A stretch of 64,000 nt of DNA from positions 16,794 through 80,793 of the forward strand of contig DBQI01000065.1 in assembly GCA_002305165.1 (NCBI GenBank). Direction: 5' to 3'. This document shows positions 2,865 through 59,817 of this stretch, one piece after another. Within the stretch, counting starts at the first letter, position 1. Each line of letters begins with the position of its first letter. The notes under the pieces were generated by a model. That model saw only the letters and a program-made list of their open reading frames with translations. It had not been told where the DNA came from and made no database searches. The translations under genes were made by a program, and so were the position numbers. The stretch is from Armatimonadetes bacterium UBA1398. GTDB lineage: Bacteria; Armatimonadota; Zipacnadia; UBA1398.

Positions 2865-3917
2865 TCAACCCCGCGCGGCCTCTTCGATCGCCTCAAAGAA
2901 GGCCACGATGTTGGGCCAGGGCACATCGGGCTCGACCACGTGTGTCGGCGCGAGGAATAACCCGCCCGAGGCGCCGACCTCGTCGATGAGCCGGTGAACG
3001 GCTCGCTTCACTTCGTTTGGGGAGCCGAAGGGGAGGGTGCTCTGGGTTCCTACGCAGCCCCAGAAGGCGAGGGAGTCGCCATACTCCGCCCGCAGTTCGA
3101 AGGGATCCATGCACTCCGGCTGCACCGGGTTGAGCACATCGATCCCCGCCTCCATCAAGCCTGGGATGATGGCTCTCACATCGCCATCGGTGTGGTACCA
3201 GATGTGGATATCCGGGTTCACCGCCCTCGCGGCATCAGCCGCGCGCTTGAGCCGCGGGAAGAGCCACTCACGCCACATCGAGGGGCTCATCATGAGGCGA
3301 TCCTGCATCCCCACATCGTCACCCAGCTGGAGCACATCGGCGCCCGCGCGGGCGATGCCCTCGGCACAGCGCACCACCTGCTCGGTGATACGGTCCAGCA
3401 GGAAGGCGGCCATCTCCTCGCGCTCGATGAAGTCCAGCATCAGCTCCTTCATCCCGCGGACCTGCCACGCAACCTCCCAGATGTGGCCGGCGAACCCGCC
3501 CACGGCGAAGCCCGCCTCATGGTGGGCGCGAGCGACCTCCCCGGCCGCGTCCGGCACGGTGTAGCTAGGCCACGGGTACTCCTCATACTGACCCAGCGAG
3601 TTGAATCGCTGAGCCGGAAAGCGGAGGCCCCAGAAGTGGTAGAAGTTCGCGGGTACGCGCGCCGTGCCATAGTCATCGATGGTGGTGCCCTCGGGGAGGT
3701 CCTGATCGGCATAGTAGCGGCTGAAGTCCGCTGTCTCGCTCGTTCGCTCGGGCCCGATGTGGCGCATCTCCATGCCGAAGTAGGTGGCGGGATCGCTGCT
3801 GCCGGTCTCCCGCCGGAACCGCTCGAACGCAGCCGGCGTGAAGCCCATCTCCTTCGGGAAGGCTCCTGGGTGCTGGTGGCGCAGGGTCATCAGTACGCGC
3901 TCGCGCGGCGTGGGCAT
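2865..3917 (-). CDS. uroporphyrinogen decarboxylase (URO-D) family protein, MtaA/CmuA-like rather than canonical HemE
   Basis: 354-aa track ORF; start moved to first ATG (M5). URO-D-like TIM-barrel length and composition; lacks the HemE N-terminal MRQAGR-type motif. Confidence 0.5.
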   Translation of the reverse strand: MPTPRERVLMTLRHQHPGAFPKEMGFTPAAFERFRRETGSSDPATYFGMEMRHIGPERTSETADFSRYYADQDLPEGTTIDDYGTARVPANFYHFWGLRFPAQRFNSLGQYEEYPWPSYTVPDAAGEVARAHHEAGFAVGGFAGHIWEVAWQVRGMKELMLDFIEREEMAAFLLDRITEQVVRCAEGIARAGADVLQLGDDVGMQDRLMMSPSMWREWLFPRLKRAADAARAVNPDIHIWYHTDGDVRAIIPGLMEAGIDVLNPVQPECMDPFELRAEYGDSLAFWGCVGTQSTLPFGSPNEVKRAVHRLIDEVGASGGLFLAPTHVVEPDVPWPNIVAFFEAIEEAARG

Positions 3918-3939
3918 GCTCGGCGGCACTCCTCGATAG

Positions 3940-4530
3940 CTAAGGGGCGACTTGCAGGGCGGCCAGCACCTGCTTGAACTCGGGCTGAAGGTGTTCCCAT
4001 TGGCTGATGAGCGACTGGAATGTGACGATGACGACTTGTCCGCTCGACCTCAGGAAGTAGAGTTGCATGACCTGCAGCTTCTGCTGGTCGCGTTCGTACT
4101 GGAAGACGATCTTCGCCACCGGCGGCGTCTGAGTGGTCATGATCTGCTCTGCTATGATCACCATGCTTGGGTTGGCCTGCACCAAGCTGTTGCGCTCGGC
4201 CGTGGCGTAGGCTTCGAGCGTAGGCTGCGAGGACTCGTGGAGGGTTACCGTGACGCTGGGCCGGAATGGCTCAGTGTGGTTGGTCCTCACATACTGGTAC
4301 GCCACCCCGGCCCTGGGGTTCGGGACGAGCTGCCAGCCGGCCACCTCGCGCACGCTCACCTGCGGCGCAGTCGGGTCCACTGCGGGTGCGGCAGGCTGTG
4401 GCGATACCACCTGTGGAGGCGTCGCGGGCACGGCCTCGGGCTCGGGCCGGTCCCTGCCACAGCCCGACATGAGGGCCGGGACGGAGAGCGCTAGCCAGAT
4501 TGTCAGCCTGCATCGCGTCATGCGAATCAT
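3940..4530 (-). CDS. hypothetical lipoprotein
   Basis: Track ORF 3940..4725 trimmed to internal ATG giving MIRMTRCRLTIWLALSVPALMSGC (signal peptide plus lipobox-like MSGC); Pro-rich linker then globular domain. Confidence 0.45.
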   Translation of the reverse strand: MIRMTRCRLTIWLALSVPALMSGCGRDRPEPEAVPATPPQVVSPQPAAPAVDPTAPQVSVREVAGWQLVPNPRAGVAYQYVRTNHTEPFRPSVTVTLHESSQPTLEAYATAERNSLVQANPSMVIIAEQIMTTQTPPVAKIVFQYERDQQKLQVMQLYFLRSSGQVVIVTFQSLISQWEHLQPEFKQVLAALQVAP

Positions 4531-4743: not shown

Positions 4744-4774
4744 TTGACAGGCGAGCCGAACGGCGTGTTATGTT
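4744..4774 (+). promoter_or_regulatory. candidate sigma70-like promoter (TTGACA, 18-19 nt spacer, TTATGT/TATGTT) upstream of FHA operon
   Basis: Perfect TTGACA at 4744..4749 and AT-rich hexamer about 18 nt downstream, in the 304-bp divergent intergenic region before the GTG at 4835. Confidence 0.3.
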
Positions 4775-4834: not shown

Positions 4835-6043
4835 GTGCGTCGTTCTCTTCCCAACCTGGTTCGTGTGTTCGGGATTGTCTGGTGCGGTCTCACTCTTCTC
4901 TGCCATTCCGCATCGGCTGCGCCCGAGCCCGAGAAGCAGGATGTCACCCTCAACGAGGTCATCGCCAGCCCCTCCCACTACCGGGACGCCGATATGTCGC
5001 TTGAGGGACTGGTGGGCGATGCACGGCTTGCCCGGGGTCCCGAAGGTCGCACGTGTTCCTTCGCCCTGGTCAGTCCTAACAGCAATATGGGCCTCGCCAT
5101 ACTAGGCGCTGACGCGCCGGAAACAGGCCTGTACGTGCGTGTGGAGGGTCCTCTGCGGCTCGATCCGCGGCTGAACACCCCGTACATCGAGTCACCCCGG
5201 GTAACTGTCCTCCACGAGCTGCCCCTGTGGCTGCGTCCCGCTGACCATCAGAGCCTTGCCGCCCTCGGCGCCATCCTGTGCGCCATGGCCGCATGCCTTC
5301 TCCTCGTCAGCATCCGCCGACCCTCCAGCGTGGCGCCGTCTCCAGAGCGCTTCAGTGCTCTGATCTCGACCGCCGTCTTGCCTCCGCGCGCTGAGACCCC
5401 GGCCCCGGCGACCGTCGCCGAGTACGTCGCGCCCGCCCCGGACACCTCGATCGGTGACGAGGGTTGCGAGCCGGGAGCATCTGACGACGATACGCCACTA
5501 ACGGGGGAGACCGTGTCCTTGGATCCGGAAGCTCTGGTGGCCGGGTCCGAGGGGCCGGCTCCATCCGGTCCTGCGGAGGGCGTGCCGGCCCGGGAAACCT
5601 CGACCGGTGACGAGAGTCCTGAGCCGACAGCATCGAGCGATGCGGCGCCCACGGCGGAGGCCGAGTCCGAAGAGCCCCCGACTGTGCCCGATGGGGACGC
5701 GTCCGTACCCATCGTCGGTATGGTACTGGAGGTCGTCGCGGGACCCGACCGGGGCAGGGTTTTCGAGGCGCGTGGCCCTAGAGTCACGATCGGCCGTTCG
5801 GAGGATCGCGACGTGCCCTTGACCGACGAGTTGGTCGCGCGCCATCAGGCGACCCTTACGCGCTCCAATGGGGTGGTGCTGCTCAGCTCTGAGGTTCCGG
5901 GCGCCGTAGTGTGTCTCAACTCCCGCCCGGTGCGCCAAGCGGAGATCGCGGCCCATGATGTCATTCGCATGGGATGCTCCGAGCTGCGCCTGATCGCCTC
6001 GCCATCAGCAGCGGAGCTAGGCCCTTCGGTACCCGCGCAATGA
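4835..6043 (+). CDS. membrane-anchored FHA domain protein (signal peptide, periplasmic domain, TM helix, acidic/Pro-rich linker, C-terminal FHA)
   Basis: C-terminal FHA signature RVTIGRSEDRDVPLTDELVARHQATL...NSRPV; internal hydrophobic helix LAALGAILCAMAACLLLVSI; stop overlaps next start (ATGA). Confidence 0.65.
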   Translation: MRRSLPNLVRVFGIVWCGLTLLCHSASAAPEPEKQDVTLNEVIASPSHYRDADMSLEGLVGDARLARGPEGRTCSFALVSPNSNMGLAILGADAPETGLYVRVEGPLRLDPRLNTPYIESPRVTVLHELPLWLRPADHQSLAALGAILCAMAACLLLVSIRRPSSVAPSPERFSALISTAVLPPRAETPAPATVAEYVAPAPDTSIGDEGCEPGASDDDTPLTGETVSLDPEALVAGSEGPAPSGPAEGVPARETSTGDESPEPTASSDAAPTAEAESEEPPTVPDGDASVPIVGMVLEVVAGPDRGRVFEARGPRVTIGRSEDRDVPLTDELVARHQATLTRSNGVVLLSSEVPGAVVCLNSRPVRQAEIAAHDVIRMGCSELRLIASPSAAELGPSVPAQ

Positions 6044-7275
6044 GCGATGACGTCCAGACCACTCCCGCCGAGGTCCCTGCCCTACCTGCCACACGCCCGG
6101 TGCGCGTTGGGTGCGCGGCGGCGCAGCCGGATGGGCTTGACCCCTGCCAAGCCGCCGTCGTCTGCGAGTGTCCCGCCGGAGGCGAGGTCCACTACGCCGC
6201 TGCGGCCTGCGTCATCGATGGCTCCCTCTCCCAGTCCAGAGGTGACATCGCGGCCTCCCTAGTTGCAGACCAGCTTGAGTCGGCACTCCAGTCTGGGCGA
6301 GCCCCCACCATTGGGGCGGGATTGGTGATGGCTCTGCACGATGCCGCAGAGGCCTTGAAGCGCCGCGCTAAGCTGCCTCACGACCCCGCGGACCTGAAGT
6401 GCAGTGCTGGTGTCGCGGTGCTGGATGACGGCAACTGGACCTTCGTTGAGGTCGGCGGCGCCCATGTGTTCCTGGAGCGAGGCCGGGCCGTCGGTCCGGT
6501 CTTCCGACAGGGACAGGCTGCCGATCCTCCTCTAGGCGATGAGGACTCCGCGCCCAGAGTCACGACGGCACGCGCTCTCCCGGGTGATCAGGCGCTGCTG
6601 CTGGGTGGCTACACCGCGGGCAGTCTCGACCTCGCCCGAGCTGCCCAGTCTCTCCGAGCTGCGCCCGATCTTGGGGAGGGCTGCAAGGCACTCGCCCGGG
6701 AGGCCCTCTCGACCCACCACACACCCCAGGCTCTGGCGTCCATCGTCCTGGATCGTCGGCCGCGTCGAGCACGATCTGTCGTGTTCCCCCTGCTATTCTC
6801 ACTCGCTTTCGTGGTGGCGGCCCTCGGGTTCGCCTTCCTTGCCTGGACGGGAGGACCGACGAGACCGATCATCCCGCCCGAGGCGCGAAGTGCGAACCTG
6901 CTGCCCATCGCTGAGGAACCCCAAGGCGCCGGCGTCGATGTCGGCGGGGCTCCCGGCCTGGTGGATATCGATCTCCCCGACGTCGAGGCCGTGCCGCGCG
7001 ATTCAGGCCGCGTCAAGGTGATCGGCGAGCCCGGACTCTGTTTCGAGGTCCTCGACCTGGCAACGGGCGAGTCCGTGTTGGAGGGCGAGATCCGCGAGGG
7101 ACAGGACTCCTACATCAGCCAGGGCATTCCCGCTCCAGGTCAATACTCTGTGACGGTATGGGAGTCGGCAGAGAAGAAGGAGGCCCGCATGGAGGGGCTC
7201 GAGTTCCATCTGGAACGGGACGCAATCAGGATTGTCGATTCCCGCAGAGGACACGAGCACGAGCCAGCGCGATAG
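6040..7275 (+). CDS. PP2C-like (possibly degenerate) membrane protein with extracytoplasmic C-terminal domain
   Basis: Start set at ATG 6040 overlapping the FHA stop. N-terminal region shows PP2C-like blocks (HYAAAACVIDGSLSQSRGD, AGVAVLDDGNWTFVEVGGAHVF, GDQALLLGGYTAG); TM helix VVFPLLFSLAFVVAALGFAFLAW. Confidence 0.5.
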   Translation: MSDDVQTTPAEVPALPATRPVRVGCAAAQPDGLDPCQAAVVCECPAGGEVHYAAAACVIDGSLSQSRGDIAASLVADQLESALQSGRAPTIGAGLVMALHDAAEALKRRAKLPHDPADLKCSAGVAVLDDGNWTFVEVGGAHVFLERGRAVGPVFRQGQAADPPLGDEDSAPRVTTARALPGDQALLLGGYTAGSLDLARAAQSLRAAPDLGEGCKALAREALSTHHTPQALASIVLDRRPRRARSVVFPLLFSLAFVVAALGFAFLAWTGGPTRPIIPPEARSANLLPIAEEPQGAGVDVGGAPGLVDIDLPDVEAVPRDSGRVKVIGEPGLCFEVLDLATGESVLEGEIREGQDSYISQGIPAPGQYSVTVWESAEKKEARMEGLEFHLERDAIRIVDSRRGHEHEPAR

Positions 7276-7355
7276 CAGGTCATCGCCTCGCCATAGGGAA
7301 CTGCGGGACGGCTCGGGCGCACCTTCACGCACCATGGAGAGGACTCCCGGAACCA

Positions 7356-7613
7356 ATGGAAGACACCCCTGAACTGAGGAGCCAGCTACGCGAGCTTGTC
7401 GTAGAGCGCCTCGCACTTGATGTTGACCCAACCGAACTCGACGACTCCGCCAACCTCATGGATGTCTACGGAGCCGACTCGGTAGGCCTCTTCTGGATCG
7501 TTGTGGGGCTGGATGAGGATCTCGGCGTGCAGGTCGGCGAGGACGAGTTCGATCTGGAGCGGTTCAGCAGCATCGAGAACCTAGCGAAGTTCCTCTCCGA
7601 GCGCGAGGCATAG
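7356..7613 (+). CDS. acyl carrier protein-like (phosphopantetheine-binding)
   Basis: 85-aa acidic protein from internal ATG of track ORF 7158..7613, GGAGAGG about 15 nt upstream; GADSVGL resembles the ACP DSL phosphopantetheine attachment motif. Confidence 0.6.
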   Translation: MEDTPELRSQLRELVVERLALDVDPTELDDSANLMDVYGADSVGLFWIVVGLDEDLGVQVGEDEFDLERFSSIENLAKFLSEREA

Positions 7614-7639
7614 CCCTCGCACCCACGGGGCGACCTGCC

Positions 7640-8452
7640 ATGGAGAGCTACCAGTTCATCCCTTCGGGCAGCGAGGAGATCCTCACGGCCTACCATGCCG
7701 CCGTCGACGGATCGCCGCCCGTCCGCTGCGCCGTTCTGGTGGCTCCTCTCCACGAGGAGAAGAAGGCCGCCCACCGTCCCCTGGTGGACCTGGCCCGCGC
7801 GCTCGCGAACAGAGGTTGCGCCTGCCTGCGGTTCGATCCACGGGGCACGGGCGACAGCCCCGGCGTGGCGGATGACCTCTGCTTCAGCACGCTCCGACAG
7901 GATCTGACGGTCGCCATCGACCAAGCCCGCACCCTCTCCGGTCTGGAGAAGGTCAGCCTTCTGGGGGTTAGGCTGGGCGCCGATCTCGTGGCACTCGAAG
8001 GGCTCGCGGGCACTGAGGTGGATCACACCCTACTGTGCGTGCCTCTCATCAGCGGCGAGCGCTACCTGCGGGAGGTACGGATACGCGGGAGGATTCGAGG
8101 CGCGATGACCACCGCGGAGGGCGGCGAGGAGGCCTCCGGCCGGTCGGCAGGGTTGGACTACGGTGGGCACTATGTCTCCCCCGAGCTGATCGCCGACCTG
8201 GAGGCCCACGATCTGATGGTTGACGAGTCCCCCCTAGCGGCGCGGGTCACCTGCATAGACATCCGAGGCAGGGATAGCATGACGGCCCCCCTGTCGGCCC
8301 TCGTTGCGAGGCTGCAGAGCCGAGGCGCCAGCGTCGATGCGCGGGTGGTGCTGGACGAGCCTTTCTGGAACGCACTGGGGCCCATCGTCCCTCGCGCGTT
8401 CATTCAGGCTGTGGTCGAGATCCTCACCGGTCGAGAGGACGAGGCCCGATGA
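7640..8452 (+). CDS. alpha/beta-fold hydrolase
   Basis: 270 aa; alpha/beta hydrolase-like layout; stop overlaps next start (ATGA at 8449..8452). Confidence 0.55.
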   Translation: MESYQFIPSGSEEILTAYHAAVDGSPPVRCAVLVAPLHEEKKAAHRPLVDLARALANRGCACLRFDPRGTGDSPGVADDLCFSTLRQDLTVAIDQARTLSGLEKVSLLGVRLGADLVALEGLAGTEVDHTLLCVPLISGERYLREVRIRGRIRGAMTTAEGGEEASGRSAGLDYGGHYVSPELIADLEAHDLMVDESPLAARVTCIDIRGRDSMTAPLSALVARLQSRGASVDARVVLDEPFWNALGPIVPRAFIQAVVEILTGREDEAR

Positions 8453-9297
8453 GCCTGTCGGAGCGCTTCATCGAGTTCGTCGGCGAGAGCGGCGGGGTGC
8501 TCCGCGGCATTCTGCACGAGCCTGTCGAGGCGAGGGACCTGCCACCTGTCATCATGTTCTCAGGCTGGGGCGGCACACGGTATGGGCCCAACCGAATACT
8601 GCTCGAGGCGGCGCGGGATCTGGCCACAGATGGTCGCGCGGTTCTCCGGGTCGACTTCCGAGGTCGGGGAGACTCCGACGGATTTGTGGACGAGCATGAC
8701 CTTCGGTCCCACATCATCGACGGCAGGACCATGGTCGCCTGGTCGCGACGGAACCTGGCGGATCGCCCGCCGGTGCTTCTGGGCATCTGCTCGGGGGGCG
8801 AGGTCGCGGTCGGCTGCATCTTCGACGGCTTGGATGTTGACTCAGTCTGCCTCTGGTCGGCGCCCGTCTTCGCGGCCCAGGCCACGACCGAGAGGGTCGC
8901 CACGAAGCGAGCCTCCTACCTCAGGGAGTACGGGCGGAAGCTCTTCCGAGGTGAGACCTGGCGGAAGCTCATCGCTGGCGAGGTGCGGTTCGATATCATC
9001 CGGCGGGTGCTCGGCAAGGCAGGTGTGCACGTGAAGTCCGAGGACGAGCCGGCGGAGTTGTCGGCGCAGTCGGACTTCCCCGCGCGATGCGAGGCCGCGC
9101 TGCTCATCTACGGCACAGCGGACCCGATCGCCGCAGAGGCGATCCAGGCGTACCAGGCTCTCTTCAGCCGCGCAGGATGTTCCACTGAACTCCGCCATAT
9201 CGAGGGTGCCAACCACGGGTTCTATGCCCTCGACTGGAAGCGTGAGGTGATCGAGAGCACCAGGGGCTGGCTGGCCGGTCGGGGTACCGCCTCATGA
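8449..9297 (+). CDS. alpha/beta-fold hydrolase
   Basis: 282 aa; nucleophile-elbow-like GICSGG and C-terminal GANHGF (catalytic His candidate); coupled to flanking genes by ATGA overlaps. Confidence 0.55.
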
Positions 9298-10397
9298 GGC
9301 GCATCCTCTTTGTCAGCCATGTGGGGGAGTTGGGGGGCGCGGAGCACTCCCTCGTTACGTTGGTCTCGTGCCTCGATCAGGGCCGCTACGACGCCCACGT
9401 TGCCCTGTCCACCATCGACTCCCCGTTGGGACGCGCGCTGTTAGAGCGGGGCGCTGAGACCCACGCCATCCCATCGCTGCGTCCGCTCCGCCGGCGCGAC
9501 CCGTTCATGCCGATCACCCTCATCCGAGGCCAGCGCGCGTTGTCCGCCCTGGCACGGAGGCTGAGGCCGGACGTCATTCACGCGAACAGCGACGTGTCGA
9601 TGGCGTACGCGGCCGGACTCTACACGGAATCAGGCTCGGGGCGAACCCCCTGGCGGATCGTCTGGCACCTTCGCGACATGCGAGGCGCGGGATACTGGGT
9701 CCGCCACCTTCGCGATCACTCTCACGCGCGCATCGCAGTGAGCCGAGCGGTGCTCGATCATCACGGCCTACACGCCTGCGAGCGGTCGCGAGTCATCTAT
9801 AACGGAGTCGACCTGTCACGCTTCCGACCGGGTCTATCGGGGGCGTCCATCCGACGCGAGCTGGCGATTGGCGCGGACCGTGTGCTGTGCCTCTGCGTGG
9901 CTCAGGCGGTCCCATGGAAGAACCTGGACACATTCGCCGGGCTCTCCGGTGAGGGGTACGAACGGCTGCTCATCGCCTATCCTCCCCCGGGAGGCAGGCC
10001 CATGGCCTGTCCCGCTTCTGGACCGGGGCTGCAAGTGGTCGGCTACCGCGACGATATGCCCGAGGTGTACGCGGCCGCGGACGTGCTCGTCCATCCGGCC
10101 ATCGGCGAGGCCTTCGGCCGCACGGTGGTCGAGGCCATGGCGTGCGGAGTGCCGGTGGTCGCCTACCGCCATGGAGGACCCGCGGAGACGATCGTGCATG
10201 GAGTGAGCGGCCTGCTCGTCGACCCGAAGGAACCGGAGGCCTTGGAGTGTGCCGTGGATCGTCTCGTGGCCGACGCTGACCTCCGGGGCCGCCTCGCTGT
10301 CGGTGCGGCCGAGCGGGCCCAGGCGTTTTCCTCCGAGAGTCACGCGGCCCAGGTGGAAGCGTTCTACGAGGATCTCATCGAGGGGGGAGCGGGGTGA
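9294..10397 (+). CDS. GT4 family glycosyltransferase (GT-B fold)
   Basis: C-terminal retaining-GT4 signature [25 protein letters not shown]; GTGA overlap with next gene. Confidence 0.8.
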
Positions 10398-11512
10398 GGG
10401 TCGGCATCGACTGCTCGGTCCTTCACGGACGCTTCTCCGGTGTGGAGAAGGCCGTCCGTGGGCTGATCGGAGGGCTGGCCGAGACCCAGGGCGAGCAGGA
10501 GCTGGTCCTCCTCTGTGGGCGCAAGCCGCCGCTCGATCTCCCGTTGCCATCGGGCATGGTGTGGCACTGCAGCGACTTCGACCCAGCCAACAGACTCCGC
10601 CGCATCGCCTTCCAACAGTGGGAGCTGCCCCGACTGGCCAAGCGCCTGGGCCTCGACGTGCTACACGGACCGGCCTATATAACGCCTGTTCACGCCCGCT
10701 TCCCGACTCTAGTGAGCGTGTACGACCTGATGGTCTTCCTCTATCCCGACCTCTGCGCACGAGCCAACCGTGTGCACTATCGCCTGGTCATGCCGCGCTG
10801 CGTGCCACGTTGCGAGCGGGTCCTCGTGCCTAGCGCCATCGTGGGGTCCTCGGTCGTGGAGACGCTCAGGGTGGATCCGGCTCGTGTCCGAGTGTCGCAC
10901 CTTGGCCTGGACCCCATCTTCGCGAGGTCCCCAGACGCGGAGGAGGTCGCCTCCCTCCGGGACCGACTGAACTTGCCCGAGCGGTTCCTCCTGTTCGTCG
11001 GCAATCTGGAGCCCAAGAAGGGCCTCGATGTCCTCGTCCGCGCGCTGGGTAGGCTCCGCGAGGGCCCGCCCCTCGTTATCGCGGGCAAGCGCGCTTGGGG
11101 CGTGGGCGGACTCGATGAGCTGATCGCCTCTGAGGGCATCCAAGACCGCGTTACGTTCACGGGGTACGTGCCCGATGAGGATCTCCCCGCCCTGTACGCG
11201 GCGGCCCGCTGGTTCGTGTTCCCCTCCATCTACGAAGGCTTCGGCCTGCCGCCCCTGGAGGCTATGGCATCTGGAACACCAGTGATCGCCTCCGATGGTG
11301 GCGCGCTCCCGGAGACCACCGGCGATGCCTGCGTCCGCGTCGAGGCGGGCAGCGTAGAGGAGCTCGCGGAGGCGATATCGGCTTCCTGGGGCGACGATGC
11401 CCTACGCGAGAGCCTGTCACGTGCCGGCGTCGTGCAGGCGAGCCGGTTCTCCTGGAGAAACCACGCTCTGGACGCGCGGCAGCTCTACGCGGAGGTGCGC
11501 CATGGACCCTAG
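10394..11512 (+). CDS. GT4 family glycosyltransferase
   Basis: GTG start overlapping previous stop; signature [22 protein letters not shown]. Confidence 0.8.
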
Positions 11513-12704
11513 CGCGCGGATCGCCTATGTGCTTGGCTCGTTCCCGAGCCCATCGGAGACGTTCATCCTGACAGAGATGTCTCTGCTGCGAGAGCGGGAC
11601 ATTGAGCCACTCGTCGTCGCACTCGAGCGTGGCCCCGATGTGGGCGACGACCGCGTCGCGGCTCTTGAGGCTGCGGCTCGCTACCGTCCCGCGCGATGGG
11701 TCTGCGTCCTGCAGAGCCTGCTCTACGGCATCGGCGGGGATGCCCGCGCCCGACTCCACGGCGCCGCAGCGGCGCGGTTCGCGGAGCAGCTGGCCCCTCT
11801 GACCCCGACGCATGTACACGCTCACTTCATGGGGGCGCCAACCCTCGTAGGCCACGCCATGGCCCGCATGATGGGGCTCAGCTTCACCTTCAGTTGCCAC
11901 GCCTCCGATGTCTTCACGGCCGGCGACCCCACTCCCGAGGAGCATGCGGCCGTCTATGACGCCCACGCAATCATCGCATGCTCCGAGTACCTCCGGAAGC
12001 ACCTCATCGAGCGCAGGGGGTACCCCCGCGAGAAGGTCATCACCATCCACCATGGCATCGATCTGAGTCGAGTGCCGGAGCGCGCGGCTCCGACCGATTC
12101 CACCGAGCCGGTCTTGGTGGCCGTAGGCCGACTGGTTCCCAAGAAGGGCTTCGATGTGCTGCTGCGCGCGGCCGCGCCGATGCTGAAACAGGATCGGATC
12201 GCCCTGCGGATCGCAGGGGAGGGCCCTGAAGGAACGCGGCTTAGAGCCCTTGCCGTCGATCTCGGCGTGTTGGACCGGGTGGAGTTCCTCGGCCGGCTCA
12301 CGTGGGAGGACACCCTGCGGACGATAGCCGAGTCCAGCGCACTCATCGCGCCCTCAGTGACGGCCGAGGACGGCGACATGGACGGGATCCCCAACGTCCT
12401 CCTGGAGGCTGGCGCGTTGGGAGTGCCGGTCATCGCGAGCCGGCTGTCCGGCATCCCCGAGCTCGTCGAGGACGGCAAGACCGGGCTGCTCACAGCCTCC
12501 GGGGATGAAGGGGCGCTTGGCAAGGCGCTCCGCCGCGTCGCGGACAGCGCGGACCTTCGGGCGCAGCTCGGAGGAGCCTCTCGCGAACGGATCCGCCGCG
12601 AGTGGAGCGCAGCCGACTCCGTAGGCCAGATCGCTGGCTTGTTCCGCGAGGCAGCGGCTCACACGACTGTGCCGGTCGAAGGCATCGAAGGGGCGCGTGC
12701 GTGA
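11502..12704 (+). CDS. GT4 family glycosyltransferase
   Basis: Start set at ATG 11502 (M36 of track ORF 11397..12704), 11-nt overlap with previous gene; signature GIPNVLLEAGALGVPVIASRLSGIPELV. Confidence 0.75.
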   Translation: MDPSARIAYVLGSFPSPSETFILTEMSLLRERDIEPLVVALERGPDVGDDRVAALEAAARYRPARWVCVLQSLLYGIGGDARARLHGAAAARFAEQLAPLTPTHVHAHFMGAPTLVGHAMARMMGLSFTFSCHASDVFTAGDPTPEEHAAVYDAHAIIACSEYLRKHLIERRGYPREKVITIHHGIDLSRVPERAAPTDSTEPVLVAVGRLVPKKGFDVLLRAAAPMLKQDRIALRIAGEGPEGTRLRALAVDLGVLDRVEFLGRLTWEDTLRTIAESSALIAPSVTAEDGDMDGIPNVLLEAGALGVPVIASRLSGIPELVEDGKTGLLTASGDEGALGKALRRVADSADLRAQLGGASRERIRREWSAADSVGQIAGLFREAAAHTTVPVEGIEGARA

Positions 12705-13642
12705 CCGCATCCCCGAGCGCCGCGAGGATACTCGTTGCCGATGACGACGCGCAGCTTTGCGACGCCCTCGTCCAGCTTCTCGGCGTTGCCGGCCACTCGG
12801 TTCAGACCGCTGGCGACGGGTATGCCTGCATCGAGGCCATCCGGGCTTTCGAGCCCGATGTGCTGATCCTCGATCTCTCCATGCCGAACCTGGATGGTTA
12901 CGGCGTCATCCGCGAGATGGAGGTTCTCGATCTCGCGAGCCAGCCGCCCGATGTCATCGTCCTGACTGGGCACGCCGGCGTCTCGGAGGGGGCACGGGCC
13001 ATTCGCTCGGGGGCCATCGGCTTCCTCACCAAGCCGGCGCGGAGCGTCGAGCTCCTCACCCTCATCGATCGCGCGGTGGCGGCCCGACGGGCCCTCGACC
13101 AGAAGCTCAGCGCCTTCAGCGAGTCTCGCAAGCACTGGGAGTGTTCGGTGGCTTGCCAAAGACGCAACATACGCCACGTTGTGAACCACATCGCGGCGGA
13201 GATCGAGGTCACGGGCCTGATCCCGCCCCGAGGCATACGGCGGATCCTCATGGCGGCCGACGAGGCGATCACCAACGCGGTCGTCCACGGAGGCCTGGAA
13301 GTCGGGTCGCTGATCAAAGAACGGGCCGATTCCCTCGGCTTCGAGCAGGCCTGCGCCATTCGGGAGGCCCAGGCTGGGCACGGTGACCGTCGGGTGACTG
13401 TCGCCCTGGACATCAACCCTGACGAGTTGGTCATCACTATCCAGGACCAGGGCCCCGGGTTCGATGTGTCGGACCTGCCCGATCCGAGCGATCCGGACGC
13501 GCTATTCAGGGCGAGCGGCCGTGGTATCATCATCATGCAGTCCCTGCTTGATGAGGTCCGGTTCGAGGACGCCGGCAGACGAACCATCATGGTTCAGCGA
13601 GCGCGTGGTACCATAGAGGCGTCAGCCAAGCAGGTGATGTGA
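12701..13642 (+). CDS. response regulator receiver (REC) domain fused to RsbW/SpoIIAB-like HATPase_c domain
   Basis: GTG 12701 overlaps previous stop (GTGA). REC motifs ILVADDD, LILDLSMPNLDG, LTKPA; C-terminal GHKL-type ATPase-like region; no HisKA or DNA-binding domain seen. Confidence 0.6.
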   Translation: MTASPSAARILVADDDAQLCDALVQLLGVAGHSVQTAGDGYACIEAIRAFEPDVLILDLSMPNLDGYGVIREMEVLDLASQPPDVIVLTGHAGVSEGARAIRSGAIGFLTKPARSVELLTLIDRAVAARRALDQKLSAFSESRKHWECSVACQRRNIRHVVNHIAAEIEVTGLIPPRGIRRILMAADEAITNAVVHGGLEVGSLIKERADSLGFEQACAIREAQAGHGDRRVTVALDINPDELVITIQDQGPGFDVSDLPDPSDPDALFRASGRGIIIMQSLLDEVRFEDAGRRTIMVQRARGTIEASAKQVM

Positions 13643-13748: not shown

Positions 13749-14534
13749 ATGCGTAGGCTAGCGGGACTTTGCGCTTCCATCATCGGCGTCGGAGCCCTCG
13801 TGGGCGTACTGCTCGCGCAGGGTCCGGCGGACGATGTCGCCCGGGCTCAAACGGGGATGCCCGCGGCCCCAAGTGCTCCGGGAGCGGCGGGGACCGGCGC
13901 GATGATGGGCGGCGGCATGATGGGTGGCGGGATGATGGGCATGGGTGGCGCGGCTGCCACCGATGCGGCGCCCGCCGCGCCTACCGTTACGGTCACCCGG
14001 CAGGTGAAGGACGATCTGGCCGAGGGCGACGACGTGGTTGTCGATGTCGTCAACGGCGCCACCCTGCAGCTTCAGAATGGCGTCGACGGCCAGGTCTTCG
14101 TGCGCCTCGATGGAGTCGTTCTGCCACGCGAGTCCGTTCGGCTGCGCTCGGACTGGACCAAGGTCGAGGGCACGGGGGATCCCTGGGACTGGCGCCGTTT
14201 TGATGGCGCGCTCTACAAGGACGCCACCATCCCCGACATTGAGACCTACCGCAAGGGGGAGGACGAGCTTCGGGCCTTCGTGATGGACACCGTCGTCAAC
14301 CGGACCGTCACGGTGGAGAAGGTCGGCGACTTCCTCCAAGCCAACGGCAAGACGATCCCTGCCGTGAAGATCACCTACACCCGCCCCGAGATCCTCATAG
14401 GGCAGGACACGGGCCCCTTCGACCTCAATGCCGAGGTCATCGCGAAGACCAAAGCCTTGGGCCTCTGGAACTGCATGTGGGACCGCGGGAAGCCGAAGGC
14501 ATTCGACTGCAGCACGCAGAGATGGGCCAACTAG
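13749..14534 (+). CDS. secreted protein with Met/Gly-rich repeat (MMGGGMMGGGMMGMGG)
   Basis: Start at internal ATG giving signal peptide MRRLAGLCASIIGVGALVGVLLAQG; Met/Gly repeat then globular C-terminal domain with two Cys. Confidence 0.5.
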   Translation: MRRLAGLCASIIGVGALVGVLLAQGPADDVARAQTGMPAAPSAPGAAGTGAMMGGGMMGGGMMGMGGAAATDAAPAAPTVTVTRQVKDDLAEGDDVVVDVVNGATLQLQNGVDGQVFVRLDGVVLPRESVRLRSDWTKVEGTGDPWDWRRFDGALYKDATIPDIETYRKGEDELRAFVMDTVVNRTVTVEKVGDFLQANGKTIPAVKITYTRPEILIGQDTGPFDLNAEVIAKTKALGLWNCMWDRGKPKAFDCSTQRWAN

Positions 14535-14560: not shown

Positions 14561-14591
14561 AGAGGGGGCAGCTCCTAGAGCTGCCCCCTCT
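14561..14591. terminator. GC-rich hairpin between convergent genes (candidate bidirectional terminator)
   Basis: Perfect inverted repeat AGAGGGGGCAGCTC / GAGCTGCCCCCTCT with a 3-nt loop; no U-tract. Confidence 0.4.
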
Positions 14592-17177: not shown

Positions 17178-19298
17178 CTATGGGAGGCCGAGGTCACGCA
17201 GAGGCTTCAGCGCCGCCTCGGCCCGCTCGTCTTGCCCCAGCGAGCGGTAACACTCCGCCAAACGCAGTCGTTCTTCCTTCTCCGCGGGAGGAACACGGAA
17301 GGCGAACGCCTGCTCGAAAGCCTCGATGGCGCCTCGGGCGTCGCCCGCCTCGTAGAGGGCGTTCCCGAGGGCTTTGTTCAGAGGTCCCAGCACCGTGATG
17401 TCCCAGACGCGCCGCCGGTGTCGTTCGAGGAGCCGCGCTGCCGACTCGGGCTGGCCCAGCGCGCGGCGGATTCGCGACTCCTGGATCACAAGCCTGTCGT
17501 GATGCGGCGCGATCTCCCGACCGAGAGTGATGAGCCCGAAGGCCCCCCACGGATCGCCATAGAGGAGCCGCTCGTCGCTCAGTTCCAGCAGTGGCGCCAT
17601 CGCCATCTCGCGGACGCCACGGTCCGTTGGGTGCTCCGCCATGCACCACCGCGCCCAAGCGAGACACTCCCGGACCAGCGCCTCATATGTGGCGGGGTCC
17701 TCCTCGGCCAGATTCACGGGATGGGCGGTGACTTGGCTGACCCAGCCTCGTGTCTCAAGGTGCGCCCCGGCCGCCTCGTACCAACGCGCCCCCGCGGAGA
17801 ACACCCCGCCAGCCCGCACTGCCAGGCTAGCCAGGTGGCGCTCGCGCTCCAGGAAGACCTGCTGGAAGGACCCCTCGACCTCTTCCTGGCTGGCGCCCAT
17901 CCACTCCTGCACGTAGCGGTACGAGTTGTCATCCAGTTCGGGGGCGAGCCAGACCCGTTGCTCGGTGCTCTGCTCCACATTGCGGCAGTAGTAGAGCGGG
18001 AAGATCCGATGGTCGCCGACGACATGCTCATCACCGCAGATGAGATCCGTTGCGGGATTGCCTAACGCGGCGATAGCCCGGTCGGCGTAGTAAGCGGCCA
18101 TCCACTCGGTGCTCCGATCCACCTCCCTGTAAGTGCGCGGCGTCTCGGCGAGCAGCCAGGCCAGAAGGACTGACAGGATGATCGCCACCGCCTTCCTCCC
18201 CCGCTCCTGGGCATCACCGAGGAGGAAGGCGATCCCGTGCAGGCCGGCCCCCGCCAGCCCAACTATCCCGAGGTAGGCGGGGATGAAGAACACCTCCTGG
18301 TCCATCGCCGTGTAGTTCCAGAAGAAGCCGAGGGAGGCCACCGCTAGCCACGCGAAAGGCGCCAGGCGCGTCCCCGCCGGACGCCACCCCACGACGTACC
18401 CGCCGAGGGCAAGCGCCCAGACGGGAAGCGACAGCTCCGCTGCTAGGCGGTGCCAGTCTCCCCTGAGCATCGTCCCCCAGAGAGGCGGCTGGGCGCCCCA
18501 CATGAACCGGCGGTAGGGGCCTGCTGAGATGGTGAACTTGAAGTCAGCCCAGGTCTTCGGCTTCGCCCAGCAGTACGCGGCTCCCTGATCCAGGTGGGGC
18601 CACGCCCCAGCCCGCAGCGGGAGATGCAGCCATACCAACTGAGACAGCAGGTACCCGCCCACGAAGGCTCCCAGCACGCTCCATCTCAGCCATAGGCGTC
18701 GAGGCTGTCCGATGAACAACGGCAGCAGCCCCAGTTGAAGGAGCGCGTTGAAGGGCCGGTGGGTGACGGCGAGCCCCAGGAGCAGTCCCAGCCCCAGCGC
18801 CCACCACCAGCGCACCGCTTGGCCCGCTTCCAGCCCTCTCCGCATCCGCAGCGCCCCCGCCAGCCCTGCCGTCAGGAGGGCTATGTCGAGGGTGTACACC
18901 TCGGTCAGGGTGGCCTGGTCCCAGACTACAGGGGTCAGGCAGAAGGCCCACGTGAGGAGCAGGGCGGTGACGTCGTGGCGGACCAGCTCGCGTAGTGAGA
19001 TGAACAGGAATAGGCCCGCGAAGCCCAGCCAGATGGCTGAGAGCAGGTTGGCGCTCGCCGCCAGGGAGGCGAGGGGCACGACCTGGCTCCAGCCCCAGGT
19101 CAGGAGCACCCACAATGGGTAGCCGGGCGCATGGGCGATGCCTCGCTGCCCCACGGCGGACAGCAGTTCGCCCGCGTCCCCGAAGGTGATCGATGGCGCC
19201 ACGGTCCAGACCACTACTGCCAGCACACCGAGGGACGAGAGAGCGCCACATACCGGGCAGCTTACGGCGGCGAGGTTAGTGGTCAGGGGACGCTGCAT
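17178..19298 (-). CDS. DUF2723-like multi-pass membrane protein (putative GT-C/PMT-like glycosyltransferase) with C-terminal TPR-like repeats
   Basis: 706 aa; N-terminal about 400 aa of hydrophobic helices with FGDAGELL motif; soluble C-terminal helical repeat region. Confidence 0.55.
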   Translation of the reverse strand: MQRPLTTNLAAVSCPVCGALSSLGVLAVVVWTVAPSITFGDAGELLSAVGQRGIAHAPGYPLWVLLTWGWSQVVPLASLAASANLLSAIWLGFAGLFLFISLRELVRHDVTALLLTWAFCLTPVVWDQATLTEVYTLDIALLTAGLAGALRMRRGLEAGQAVRWWWALGLGLLLGLAVTHRPFNALLQLGLLPLFIGQPRRLWLRWSVLGAFVGGYLLSQLVWLHLPLRAGAWPHLDQGAAYCWAKPKTWADFKFTISAGPYRRFMWGAQPPLWGTMLRGDWHRLAAELSLPVWALALGGYVVGWRPAGTRLAPFAWLAVASLGFFWNYTAMDQEVFFIPAYLGIVGLAGAGLHGIAFLLGDAQERGRKAVAIILSVLLAWLLAETPRTYREVDRSTEWMAAYYADRAIAALGNPATDLICGDEHVVGDHRIFPLYYCRNVEQSTEQRVWLAPELDDNSYRYVQEWMGASQEEVEGSFQQVFLERERHLASLAVRAGGVFSAGARWYEAAGAHLETRGWVSQVTAHPVNLAEEDPATYEALVRECLAWARWCMAEHPTDRGVREMAMAPLLELSDERLLYGDPWGAFGLITLGREIAPHHDRLVIQESRIRRALGQPESAARLLERHRRRVWDITVLGPLNKALGNALYEAGDARGAIEAFEQAFAFRVPPAEKEERLRLAECYRSLGQDERAEAALKPLRDLGLP

Positions 19299-59546: not shown

Positions 59547-59817
59547 CGATCATCCCCCCGATACAGCGGCGCGCGGGAGGTCACTGCGAGCCCCCCTGAA
59601 AAGACGAAGCGCCTGACTCGTCGGCCGAGCGGGCGCGTGGTGGCGTGTTGGGGCACAACCTGCCGAGCATCATTTCAACCCTTCGCGACGCTCCTCCCGA
59701 ACCCTTCCCATTCCGCACTGTATCCGGTACCCTCTCATGGGCTTGGGGCCACGCGCTGTGGGCCGCGAGAGCCCGATTCCCGGCGCCCCCAGGGGGGCGT
59801 TCCGAGAGGAGCGCGCC

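Follow-up and report, generated by a model that had tools for sequence, protein, structure and literature searches.

A conserved operon of uncultured Armatimonadia joining an ACP-hydrolase pair and three GT4 glycosyltransferases to FHA, PP2C-fold and REC-Bergerat proteins

It was beside exosortase A (XrtA) that a cassette was first noted in which an acyl carrier protein (ACP) gene is followed by the genes of two alpha/beta-fold proteins, hydrolase 2 (hyd2) and hydrolase 1 (hyd1), among GT4 genes of the glycan loci of PEP-CTERM systems; we found no biochemical function for any hydr1 or hydr2 member, and the literature gave just a gene-table entry. In Mycobacterium tuberculosis, the fhaA-fhaB-pstP genes, in which a TM-bearing FHA protein (FhaB/FipA) is followed by a PP2C-TM-extracytoplasmic protein (PstP), adjoin envelope biosynthesis genes. 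In parallel, REC, RsbW-type and PP2C-type modules are tied to a GT-rich polysaccharide pathway in Vibrio fischeri (SypE/SypA) and Anabaena (HenR/All4160/Alr3423), and the SypE/SypA and HenR/All4160 systems need a STAS-domain target together with an active PP2C. LvrC of Leptospira is a Rec + Bergerat-fold putative anti-sigma factor (PMC13269768).

Modules resembling all of these meet in the window analysed here, that is, the whole 64-kb stretch of Armatimonadota DNA, where nine co-directional open reading frames (g1 to g9, Table 1) occupy positions 4835-13642. The first-pass annotation had described an operon with this span and these junctions, and both our own reading and independent public gene calls agree with it: ATGA overlaps lie at 6040, 8449 and 9294, GTGA overlaps at 10394 and 12701 and an 11-nt overlap at 11502, the gaps between operon genes being of 80 and 26 nt. 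The same nine genes were called independently on the public contig JAXGNZ010000002.1 (GCA_040767745.1), which is 99.77% identical to the window over the operon region. Profile searches also bore out the domain content first proposed: Yop-YscD_cpl/FHA in g1, PP-binding in g3, alpha/beta hydrolase domains in g4 and g5, Glyco_transf_4 plus Glycos_transf_1 in each of the three GT4s, and Response_reg plus HATPase_c_2 in g9. The operon is real and is conserved in uncultured Armatimonadia, with the conserved unit slightly exceeding nine genes, since it adds a DcrB-like lipoprotein gene upstream and g10 downstream.

A possible promoter was picked by eye (Table 1) and had been missed by the consensus scan because its spacer falls outside the 16-18 nt rule of that scan. 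Inside the cluster, the same scan gave no promoter-like site (not above shuffles), and the 4 terminator-like sites are no excess over the 2.9 expected from shuffles, so that no internal signal of the kind that the first-pass annotation had named as speaking against it, splitting the cluster into separate units, stood out. The Rfam search of the cluster gave no match and no conserved intergenic element was found in the operon. The GC content is uniform, and there is therefore no sign of recent transfer.

Table 1. Position, strand and supporting evidence of the features of the locus, numbered from the first letter of the window.
Feature	Position	Strand	Evidence
DcrB-like lipoprotein gene, 196 aa, lipobox ...SGC	3940..4530	-	gene calls, alignment, tblastn
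Possible operon promoter (candidate, by eye)	4744..4774	+	TTGACA 4744-4749, 19-nt spacer, TGtTATGTT 4766-4774 (extended -10-like)
g1, bitopic membrane FHA protein	4835..6043	+	Yop-YscD_cpl 49.1 bits, FHA 30.4 bits (Pfam); hydropathy; alignments
g2, PP2C-fold membrane protein	6040..7275	+	AlphaFold2 (AF2) model, Foldseek, profile and family alignments
g3, dedicated acyl carrier protein, 85 aa	7356..7613	+	PF00550 33.1 bits
g4, hydrolase-2-type alpha/beta-fold protein	7640..8452	+	TIGR03101 80.8 bits (cut-off 202.75); alignments
g5, hydrolase-1-type alpha/beta hydrolase	8449..9297	+	TIGR03100 64.8 bits (cut-off 168.45); alignments
g6, GT4 glycosyltransferase a	9294..10397	+	Glycos_transf_1 94.8 bits, Glyco_transf_4 55.5 bits
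g7, GT4 glycosyltransferase b	10394..11512	+	Glycos_transf_1 121.5 bits
g8, GT4 glycosyltransferase c	11502..12704	+	Glycos_transf_1 113.9 bits
g9, receiver + RsbW/SpoIIAB-type Bergerat protein	12701..13642	+	Response_reg 80.3 bits, HATPase_c_2 68.3 bits
g10, envelope protein, 261 aa	13749..14534	+	gene calls, hydropathy, alignment with L007 and L009 orthologues

The likeness of g3-g5 to the exosortase-A cassette, already suggested from the sequence, stands as regards the best NCBIfam matches (hydr2_PEP for g4, hydr1_PEP for g5), the ACP-hyd2-hyd1 order, set in a glycan locus together with GT4 genes, and the signature residues, but not as regards the hydrolase scores, which reach 40% or less of the curated family cut-offs and thus make g4 and g5 distant relatives rather than members. 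A bona fide XrtA-type pair passes these cut-offs (203.9 and 301 bits), with Arg in its hyd2 and Cys and His in its hyd1. The locus also differs from the XrtA cassette in its Armatimonadia host, in the FHA, PP2C-fold and REC-GHKL genes that bracket it, and in that exosortase, PEP-CTERM protein, acyl-CoA ligase and PLP decarboxylase are absent from the 64-kb window, as had been noticed at the outset for ligase, decarboxylase and exosortase.

The ACP has no equivalog-level NCBIfam match, and its D-S phosphopantetheine attachment motif is conserved in an alignment of nine orthologues that includes an XrtA-type ACP; neither an ACP-loading enzyme (ligase, acyl-ACP synthetase or KS) nor a PPTase was found in the 64-kb window. 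In g4, the nucleophile elbow carries Arg111 (G-V-R-L-G) and E-P-F-W takes the place of the catalytic His motif, just as XrtA-type hyd2 has Arg at the elbow and an F-W motif replacing the catalytic His, and 147 of 149 related hyd2 domains likewise have Arg there; g4 is, judging by these residues, probably non-catalytic. The g5 triad is Cys114-Asp225-His256 (G-I-C-S-G-G), with Cys in place of the Ser of solved esterases and Asp and His kept, and XrtA-type hyd1 shares its Cys, Asp and His; g5 is probably the acyl-transferring or thioester-cleaving subunit. An exhaustive profile search gave 815 representatives at E<=1e-30, and among the best 150 of them 65 were hyd2(N)-hyd1(C) fusions, whose hyd1 domains keep Cys in 62/62, His in 59/62 and Asp in 50/62. 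Hydrolases 1 and 2 therefore most likely act as a single working unit. With this, two lineages (L011 and L013) are hard to square if hyd2 is a mere partner of hyd1, given that they have the FHA, PP2C-like, ACP and hyd2 genes with neither hyd1 nor GT4 genes nearby.

The same block is found outside the setting of the window. Armatimonadota loci of a Wzx/Wzy type (L014, L025-27, L028, L029), which come from unannotated MAG sequence and have not been described as a system, follow the order GT2-ACP-(hyd2-hyd1 or fusion)-GT4x3-MurJ-like flippase-GT4-Wzy_C; L014 and L025 share with the window the orthologous ACP-hyd2-hyd1-GT4a-b-c block, collinear at 34-52% identity, while L028 and L029 share the gene-family order. 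Collinear orthologues of g6 occur in L007, L009, L012, L014 and L025, and g7 and g8 also have orthologues in relatives. These loci differ from the window in the MurJ/Polysacc_synt_3 flippase added in L025, L028 and L029, in the fourth GT4 of L025 and L028 and in the Wzy_C-like gene of L025 (none of these is within reach in L014), and in several of them the hydrolases are fused; in another lineage (L015), the additional genes encode a PPTase and a type II thioesterase as well as a flippase. The block in L014, L025, L028 and L029 is free of FHA, PP2C and REC-GHKL genes, and the earlier view that it is wired to signalling does not hold for the block as such. The flippase, GT4 and Wzy_C-like neighbours in sister lineages point to an exported surface product, with no priming phosphoglycosyl transferase, flippase, polymerase or exporter found in the 64-kb window itself.

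The ACP, the hydrolase pair and the three GT4s probably build an acylated surface sugar compound, and the acylated glycoconjugate proposed by the first-pass annotation is still the most reasonable predicted product. We suggest, with middling confidence, that g3-g8 are a block of genes for the synthesis of an acyl-modified glycoconjugate, such as a lipid-linked oligosaccharide or a cell-envelope glycolipid, with g1/g2 in a scaffold role and g9 in that of a switch. In such a pathway, a carboxylic acid would be bound to the phosphopantetheine arm of g3 through a thioester link, the Cys of g5 would accept the acyl group from g3 and would either release it or transfer it to the sugar chain, at a hydroxyl or an amine, and the three cytoplasmic GT4 enzymes would assemble that chain. 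For g4, we envisage an obligate non-catalytic partner, whose probable ligand would be either the ACP or some anionic portion of the acceptor.

Among the enzymes that work on acyl carriers or glycolipids are several with an alpha/beta fold (RhlA, LuxD, Antigen 85 and Chp1 are examples), and the product could be, in place of a modified polymer, a free glycolipid or biosurfactant. The two hydrolases would then act in a RhlA/LuxD-like manner on acyl-ACP supplied by fatty-acid synthesis, from which they would release or condense (hydroxy)acyl chains, and the three GT4s would go on to glycosylate the lipid, as in rhamnolipid or phosphatidylinositol-mannoside-type pathways. Besides that background, the lack of priming transferase, polymerase and flippase in the window would fit this pathway, as would weak matches to the acyl-ACP thioesterase LuxD (1tht), a faint Acyl_transf_2 match in P0028, and the weak similarity of g6 and g7 to GT4 enzymes acting on lipids (GlcN-PG synthase, MGlcDAG synthase and IagA/BgsA in NCBIfam). 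These GT4 similarities are, however, all generic and far below their cut-offs, the MurJ/Wzx-type flippases and Wzy_C-like gene of the sister loci are typical of lipid-linked glycans, and a dedicated ACP rather than AcpP speaks for an acyl unit of a special kind, so we consider a free glycolipid unlikely.

Turning to the membrane proteins, g1 begins with a signal peptide and a conserved extracytoplasmic domain (~30-140), crosses the membrane once (TM helix, 142-160) and ends, after a disordered linker, in a cytoplasmic FHA domain (~299-387) of the YscD/GarA-like type. Alignment to the GarA/OdhI structures and within the family shows three of the five signature residues missing: the conserved Ser is Ala in 3/5 lineages, the His is replaced in 4/5 and the NG Asn is absent in 5/5, the Gly-Arg pair and the second invariant Arg (R336) being retained. 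The assignment of g2 as PP2C-like stood as regards its fold, which the AlphaFold2 model (pLDDT 76) confirms, although its Pfam PP2C score stays below the cut-off (20.8 vs 24 bits); the best structural match is PstP 1txo (Foldseek E 5.5e-12, TM 0.75 on target), with PstP, PppA, tPphA and SpoIIE matching at E about 1e-11. Its topology is also PstP-like, with a cytoplasmic PP2C fold (~20-240), a single hydropathy-predicted TM helix (~244-270) and an extracytoplasmic beta-sandwich (~320-400). Profile alignment to PstP leaves D60-G61 as its sole metal motif, with no equivalents of PstP D118 and D191 and no motifs I and XI, and most metal ligands are missing across the whole g2 family, while a second PP2C in the same window retains DED, DG, GDSR and TDG; g2 is therefore probably a pseudophosphatase. 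We suggest keeping in mind that missing canonical residues in g1 and g2 are no proof of inactivity.

The pair recalls the M. tuberculosis operon, as g1 has FhaB_Rv0019c for its top NCBIfam match, albeit a weak one, and g2 has PstP for its best structural match, but it differs in that the window has no PknA/PknB-type kinase, the g2 metal site and the g1 pThr residues are not conserved, and the N-terminal domain of g1 lies outside the cell, so that the membrane orientation is another one. The last operon gene, g9, has a receiver with a complete phospho-acceptor set (DD, D58, T, K) and matches both domains of PDB 9qih (304-aa chain) over residues 8-296 at E 4.4e-21, an entry that we infer from the deposition list of PMC13269768 to be LvrC. 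LvrC and g9 share the two-domain architecture, the canonical receiver and an RsbW/SpoIIAB-like C-terminal domain; their similarity is modest, and g9 differs in closing a biosynthetic operon. The N-box, G1 (D-x-G-x-G) and G2 are intact in the g9 of the window, which could therefore be a working Ser/Thr kinase, and no cognate histidine kinase or sigma factor was found near it.

A true phospho-relay might accordingly be imagined from these parts, in which g9 would be a receiver-switched RsbW-type Ser/Thr kinase, g2 the phosphatase, and the FHA domain of g1 the reader of the mark, borne either by a biosynthetic protein or by the linker of g1 itself, so that a glycan enzyme would be regulated directly in a partner-switching-like way, as with SypE/SypA of Vibrio or HenR/All4160 of Anabaena. 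All three folds are indeed present in one translationally coupled operon, with intact g9 boxes and receiver and with the two Arg features of g1, and partner-switching control of polysaccharide synthesis has precedent (PMC3610818, PMC4517449; bioRxiv 10.64898/2026.04.08.717354). Against it, neither a STAS protein nor a Hanks kinase was found in the 64-kb window, most metal ligands of g2 are missing family-wide, the FHA signature of g1 is depleted in most of the five lineages aligned, the G1-box Asp is Gly in both g9 orthologues examined (L007 and L009), and g9 is absent from L011, L013 and L030 despite their FHA, PP2C-like and ACP genes. Compared with the described partner-switching systems, the PP2C-fold protein of the window is separate, membrane-anchored and degenerate, and the FHA protein is extra. 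The phospho-dependent control proposed by the first-pass annotation is hence doubtful, and a relay of this kind is improbable. Because of the eroded phospho-recognition and catalytic residues, our preferred reading does not take g1 and g2 as a working kinase/phosphatase circuit; they would rather form a transmembrane scaffold or sensor holding or gating the ACP-hydrolase unit at the membrane, and g9, by analogy with LvrC, may be a receiver-controlled anti-sigma-factor-like switch driven by a histidine kinase.

The flanking genes belong to the same picture. In five lineages, the FHA gene is directly preceded by the divergently transcribed DcrB-like gene, which has a weak PF08786 match in relatives and a conserved lipobox Cys. 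In g10, an N-terminal signal anchor and a stretch rich in Gly, Ala and Met are combined with a C-terminal domain that bears two conserved Cys, and neither Pfam nor NCBIfam gives a match. Gene-order conservation, which had been proposed as a check, was found: all the genes occur again, in unchanged order, in relatives whose proteins are just 33-68% identical and whose more distant flanks differ, and the arrangement is therefore more than chance. The ten-gene order is kept in L007 and L009, which differ in their downstream flank and, upstream, share a URO-D gene with a different flank beyond it. It is very unlikely, in our view, that DcrB-like/FHA/PP2C-like, ACP-hydrolase-GT4 and REC-GHKL/g10 are merely abutting units whose overlaps reflect genome compaction only, even though the biosynthetic block occurs without signalling genes in L014, L025, L028 and L029 and g9 and g10 are both missing from L011, L013 and L030. 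Six lineages whose g2 proteins are only 31-35% identical (the window clade, L007/8, L009/10, L011, L013 and L030/31) have FHA and PP2C-like genes, and in each of them the ACP gene comes directly after these two; this, the ten-gene order and the lack of an internal terminator or conserved intergenic element speak against such units.

In summary, by its sequence relationships the block is an Armatimonadota branch of the uncharacterised ACP/hydrolase-2/hydrolase-1 cassette. In the Armatimonadia subclade of the window, this block has lost its flippase/Wzy_C-type neighbours and gained g1, g2 and the divergent lipoprotein gene upstream and g9 and g10 downstream, with a signalling shell that is specific to one lineage and, from its residues, looks eroded.

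The layout of nine co-directional ORFs described by the first-pass annotation proved exact on re-reading. Five junctions are four-base overlaps, of the form ATGA (6040, 8449, 9294) or GTGA (10394, 12701); one overlap, at 11502, is 11 nt long, and the other two junctions are gaps of 80 and 26 nt. Independent gene calls on the nearest public record of the operon region, contig JAXGNZ010000002.1 of the MAG GCA_040767745.1, gave these same nine genes, at 99.77% identity over the region. Recent horizontal transfer of the operon was rejected, the GC content being uniform across the region (0.66–0.68). Internal promoters or terminators that would split the cluster into independent units gained no support either, since a consensus scan found no promoter-like sites in the cluster and four terminator-like sites against 2.9 expected from shuffles, neither being in excess, and no Rfam family matched anywhere in the 64-kb window. 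For the 80-nt gap between g2 and g3, a regulatory RNA and an internal promoter were both rejected on the same evidence and because the gap sequence is conserved at the ribosome-binding site only; in two loci of relatives the gap is shorter, L011 having 39 nt and L013 5 nt. At the strain level, the metagenome contig L005, otherwise near-identical to the window, carries a 75-nt in-frame deletion within the first GT4 gene, and in L003 the g1-g2 region is 90–93% identical, with indels and broken gene calls, the remainder being ~99% identical; recombination, relaxed selection or assembly chimerism could account for these differences.

Features of the window and of the homologous loci discussed in the text
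Feature	Sequence	Positions	Strand	Remark
URO-D-fold gene	window	2865-3929	-	best match MtaA/CmuA-type corrinoid methyltransferases, not HemE
Lipoprotein gene	window	3940-4530	-	DcrB-like, divergent from the operon
Candidate promoter	window	4744-4774		TTGACA / extended -10-like pair upstream of g1, read by eye
g1	window	4835-6043		FHA protein
g2	window	6040-7275		PP2C-like protein
g3	window	7356-7613		PP-binding carrier protein (ACP), 85 aa
g4	window	7640-8452		hydrolase 2
g5	window	8449-9297		hydrolase 1
g6-g8	window	9294-12704		three GT4 enzymes
g9	window	12701-13642		REC-GHKL protein
g10	window	13749-14534		envelope protein
Laminin_G_3 gene	window	14590-17166	-	858 aa, between operon and GT-C gene
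GT-C gene	window	17178-19298	-	TMEM260-like (DUF2723), C-terminal TPR repeats, 3.5 kb downstream of operon
Second membrane PP2C	window	27382-29253	+	623 aa
Large ORF	window	43913-47482	-	1189 aa, weak Cytochrome_C554 match only; identical protein in several metagenomes
E1 alpha/beta pair	window	59737-61789	+	46 kb from cluster, no adjacent E2
g1-g2 region	L003	7014-9194		window 4835-6988
GT4 deletion	L005	~12097-12121		window ~9736-9835
g9 orthologue	L007	15149-16057		
g9 orthologue	L009	15237-16145		
GT-C orthologue	L011	10805-13087	-	37% identical, directly convergent with hydrolase 2
E1 orthologue	L014	201-1181		E1 beta only on contig
True hydrolase 2 member	L016	9171-10004		
E1 orthologues	L025	6766-8702		
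Hydrolase 2-hydrolase 1 fusion	L025	10001-11767		
E1 orthologues	L029	5752-7816		

The earlier domain calls were mostly borne out by Pfam and NCBIfam: g1 ends in an FHA-type domain (Yop-YscD_cpl 49.1 bits, cut-off 33.2; FHA 30.4 bits, cut-off 20.7), g4 and g5 are alpha/beta hydrolases, g6 to g8 are GT4 enzymes, and g9 joins Response_reg to HATPase_c_2 (68.3 bits, cut-off 27.4). An anti-phage or conflict system, suggested by Pfam GT4-conflict matches, was discarded, since the PADLOC defence models gave nothing relevant against the cluster proteins, the lone match being that of the g9 receiver domain to SduA at 28.6 bits; the GT4-conflict matches themselves are outranked by general GT4 families.

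In a set of 5.8 billion proteins, the close relatives of the hydrolase 2 protein g4 make up only about a dozen clusters, and a genome scan placed its family in the class Armatimonadia. Indexing of the collection puts g4 in 209 blocks, the organism turns up repeatedly among metagenome and sequencing-run assemblies, and one of the g4-bearing contigs is labelled a bioreactor metagenome; hydrolase 2 profile scans of metagenome contigs and of genome contigs returned five and three loci, mostly overlapping those of other searches. Three neighbourhood patterns were found. In the first, the loci L007/L008 and L009/L010 keep the full gene set in window order, with proteins 33–68% identical to those of the window, the set being preceded by the divergent DcrB-like gene and followed by g10; a URO-D gene upstream is common to them and the window, while the flanks beyond it and on the downstream side differ (MutS/PFK upstream, POR downstream). 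This URO-D-fold gene adjoins the lipoprotein gene in L007 and L009 (66–68% identity), and not in L011 or L030. In the second pattern, the five-gene unit formed by the lipoprotein gene and the divergent FHA, PP2C-like, ACP and hydrolase 2 genes persists in L011 and L013, where unrelated genes follow with no hydrolase 1 or GT4 nearby, and it is seen as far as the ACP in L030/L031, whose contigs stop just past that gene. In all lineages seen, the FHA and PP2C-like genes have the ACP gene directly downstream. In the third pattern, the biosynthetic block stands without signalling genes, as in L014, where the order is GT2, ACP, hydrolase 2, hydrolase 1 and three GT4 genes. These patterns therefore establish that the cluster is genuine and conserved, yet modular, and mere juxtaposition of its genes seems to us very improbable beside the full order kept in diverged relatives.

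The block without the shell, as we call the lineage-specific g1, g2 and g9, extends to other Armatimonadota. The protein P0030 (HOJ20025.1 and others), from Armatimonadota MAGs, is a fused hydrolase 2-hydrolase 1, and its locus L025 reads E1 alpha, E1 beta, GT2, ACP, fusion, three GT4 genes, a MurJ/Polysacc_synt_3 flippase, a further GT4 and a Wzy_C-like gene, the ACP-to-third-GT4 segment being collinear with g3-g8 of the window at 34–42% identity. L028 and L029 show a similar theme, with a flippase next to a related block, orthology being demonstrated for L025, which is also the only one of the three with a Wzy_C-like gene; in the more distant pair L015, a flippase, a PPTase and a type II thioesterase come after. 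No FHA, PP2C-like or REC-GHKL gene occurs at L014, L015, L025, L028 or L029. These loci are most simply explained by an ACP/hydrolase/GT4 block that was at first part of flippase-dependent glycan loci and that, in one Armatimonadia subclade, gained the shell and lost the adjacent flippase. In L025 and L029, the E1 alpha/beta genes lie immediately upstream of the GT2-ACP(-hydrolase 2-hydrolase 1) genes, E1 beta of the window being 51–53% identical to those in L014 and L025, and this adjacency could reflect old synteny or a functional tie to ACP loading. We did not adopt these PDH-type E1 proteins as the ACP loader because their scores are those of an ordinary pyruvate dehydrogenase E1 and their genes lie beside FabG/FabF-like housekeeping genes in L029.

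The first-pass annotation had likened the ACP and paired hydrolases to the hydrolase-1/hydrolase-2/ACP cassette of exosortase-A-type polysaccharide loci, and this likeness holds in gene order, signature residues and distant homology but not in family score or context. Membership of TIGR03101 and TIGR03100, the models of hydrolases 2 and 1 of exosortase A systems, requires a score at or above the curated cut-off; g4 has TIGR03101 hydr2_PEP as its best NCBIfam match at 80.8 bits (cut-off 202.75), its relatives P0008 and P0012 scoring 80–116 bits, and g5 has TIGR03100 hydr1_PEP at 64.8 bits (cut-off 168.45), against 290.6 and 301.1 bits for the true members P0016 and P0017. At the exosortase-type locus L016, an 82-aa ACP is followed by a true hydrolase 2 just over the cut-off (203.9 bits) and a hydrolase 1 (301 bits), the same order as g3-g4-g5. 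The residues also agree: in alignments to solved esterases and to its family, g4 has Arg at the nucleophile elbow (G-V-R-L-G) and E-P-F-W at the catalytic His motif, where the L016 member has G-L-R-V-G and A-F-W, and g5 has a Cys nucleophile in G-I-C-S-G-G with D225 and H256, where P0016 and P0017 have G-L-C-[ND]-G-A and D-H-T-F. As to context, no exosortase A, PEP-CTERM protein, associated acyl-CoA ligase or PLP-dependent decarboxylase is present among the genes of the 64-kb window, as had been noted for the ligase, decarboxylase and exosortase. At the level of distant homology, the sequences support the view that the cluster descends from, and may work like, the exosortase-A-type cassette.

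An exhaustive hydrolase 2 profile search over 1.84 billion representatives gave 17,173 relatives, of which 815 reach E<=1e-30, and 65 of the best 150 representatives (among P0027-P0173) are fusions of 560–640 aa with hydrolase 2 at the N-terminus and hydrolase 1 at the C-terminus. Among these best 150, Arg occupies the elbow in 147/149 hydrolase 2-type domains, and the fused hydrolase 1-type domains keep Cys in 62/62, His in 59/62 and Asp in 50/62; the attachment Ser of the ACP is kept in every orthologue aligned. The natural fusions argue strongly that the two proteins would act as a single unit, and the Arg elbow and missing His of g4, set against the Cys-Asp-His of g5, argue that hydrolase 1 is probably its sole catalytic member. 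The 1184-aa P0088, with four matched stretches, is a doubled hydrolase 2-hydrolase 1 fusion. Our literature search on these two families returned one gene-table mention, with no function described.

Regarding the shell, g1 by hydropathy starts with a signal peptide and a domain outside the cell, from which a TM helix leads to the FHA domain on the inside. Hydropathy and the AlphaFold2 model place the PP2C fold of g2 inside and, beyond a TM helix, a beta-sandwich outside, as in PstP. The earlier PP2C call for g2 stands as to fold, though its Pfam match is below threshold (PP2C_2, 20.8 bits against a cut-off of 24). The model (pLDDT 76, and ~88 over residues 20–240) matches PstP 1txo in Foldseek with E 5.5e-12 and a target TM of 0.75, with PppA, tPphA and SpoIIE also at ~1e-11, so the predicted fold is the one called. 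The PP2C metal site consists of the motif I Asp, the motif II Asp-Gly, and the motif VIII and XI Asp (D38/G39, D118, D191 and D229 of PstP); g2 retains only the motif II Asp-Gly (D60-G61), with no DN/DD motif and with motifs I and XI absent, and where PstP has D118 and D191, none of the eight family members aligned has an acidic residue. A second membrane PP2C of the window served as an internal control and keeps DED, DG, GDSR and TDG. It shares the topology of g2, with its PP2C in the cytoplasm joined by a long acidic/Pro-rich linker to a TM helix and a domain outside the cytoplasm, and it may be an active paralogue and the ancestor of the g2-type pseudophosphatases.

The FHA domain of g1, with GarA and OdhI as its best solved relatives, looks eroded in the five-residue signature (Gly-Arg, Ser, His and the Asn of the NG loop) that forms the pThr pocket. 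Gly320-Arg321 and R336 do not vary among the five lineages. Ala replaces the conserved Ser in three, the window among them, the window alone has the His, with Tyr or Phe in its place in the remaining four, and the NG-loop Asn is absent from all five (Pro or Ser/Gly/His, varying with the alignment). As for g9, it has a canonical receiver and an RsbW-type Bergerat domain that weakly matches RsbW 6m36 and SpoIIAB, and its N-box, G1 and G2 are intact in the window copy. The L007 and L009 orthologues, with receiver residues intact, read G-P-G-P-G against D-Q-G-P-G in the window, so that part of the family has lost the adenine-contacting Asp of the G1 box. The best solved match of g9, over both domains, is the 304-aa chain 9qih (E 4.4e-21), deposited with the Leptospira LvrB paper on LvrB/LvrC (PMC13269768), and we infer that 9QIH is LvrC; the name "SenB" attached to this entry was set aside, as the literature gave only an unrelated selenoneine enzyme under it and the PDB code leads to the LvrB/LvrC paper. 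A STAS-domain antagonist was matched neither by any gene of the window nor within 10-kb flanks in relatives. The shell thus looks more like a set of binding or scaffolding modules with one receiver-controlled switch than a working kinase/phosphatase/reader circuit, and the phospho-dependent control proposed at first is weakened by the metal residues mostly lost from g2, the FHA signature residues missing from g1 and the lack of STAS in the window. A true phospho-relay, for which the intact receiver of g9 might speak, is accordingly an unlikely reading.

The architecture as first read is correct, and no single described system unites these parts. The polysaccharide controls SypE/SypA and HenR/All4160 (PMC3610818, PMC4517449, bioRxiv 10.64898/2026.04.08.717354) are similar, but the STAS partner that defines them is missing from the window and so is an intact PP2C; mycobacterial FhaB-PstP resembles the g1-g2 pair, but there is no kinase here; and g9 has the domain architecture of LvrC. 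Unlike Wzx/Wzy-dependent loci, the window has no flippase, no polymerase/ligase-like Wzy_C and no priming transferase, and no ligase, decarboxylase, exosortase, PPTase or STAS gene was found in its 64 kb either.

With anatomy, residues, fusions and neighbourhoods as the observed basis, and chemistry, product and regulatory roles inferred, we propose that the ACP would carry an acyl unit, that hydrolase 1, through its Cys and with hydrolase 2 as a non-catalytic partner, would move this unit onto a glycan made by the three GT4 enzymes, and that the product would be a surface glycoconjugate. In turn, g1, g2, the lipoprotein and g10 would form an envelope-spanning scaffold or sensor linked to the ACP-hydrolase unit, and g9 would provide receiver-controlled regulation. 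We give this whole reading about an even chance. A free glycolipid pathway is doubtful in our judgement. More speculatively, and with only slim prospects of being right, the lipoprotein and the divergent FHA, pseudo-PP2C, ACP and Arg-elbow pseudo-hydrolase may be a new kind of transmembrane device, in which repurposed phospho-recognition folds would hold the ACP and its non-catalytic partner and couple envelope status to acyl delivery. Envelope status would be sensed by the three extracytoplasmic domains, the acyl unit then being delivered to glycan synthesis, and the folds could, as one possibility, recognise the pantetheine arm with its phosphoserine link, or else how the ACP is acylated.

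Two genes beyond the operon may touch on its product. The GT-C glycosyltransferase may be a periplasmic glycosylation step tied to the system, and the protein with a Laminin_G_3/concanavalin-like domain, which also has weak esterase-family matches (AXE1, Peptidase_S9, BAAT_C), could remove acyl groups from the product or remodel it.

Two results are the most useful: the hydrolase pair has an Arg/Cys anatomy and is frequently fused, and FHA, pseudo-PP2C and ACP are strictly linked, an arrangement with no obvious precedent. With an uncultured host and no known chemistry, practical impact is limited at present. To our knowledge, protein-family models of the hydrolase-1/hydrolase-2/ACP cassette have been available for years with no known function, and the cassette now has three biochemical handles, an Arg-for-Ser pseudo-enzyme in hydrolase 2, a Cys-His-Asp hydrolase 1 and their frequent fusion, besides occurring well beyond exosortase systems, the hydrolase 2 profile finding 815 representative clusters at E<=1e-30. 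The envelopes of Armatimonadota are, as far as we know, almost unstudied, and the same biosynthetic block with and without its FHA, PP2C-fold and REC-Bergerat shell is a natural experiment, which could reveal how degenerate signalling folds are re-used as scaffolds of envelope biosynthesis.
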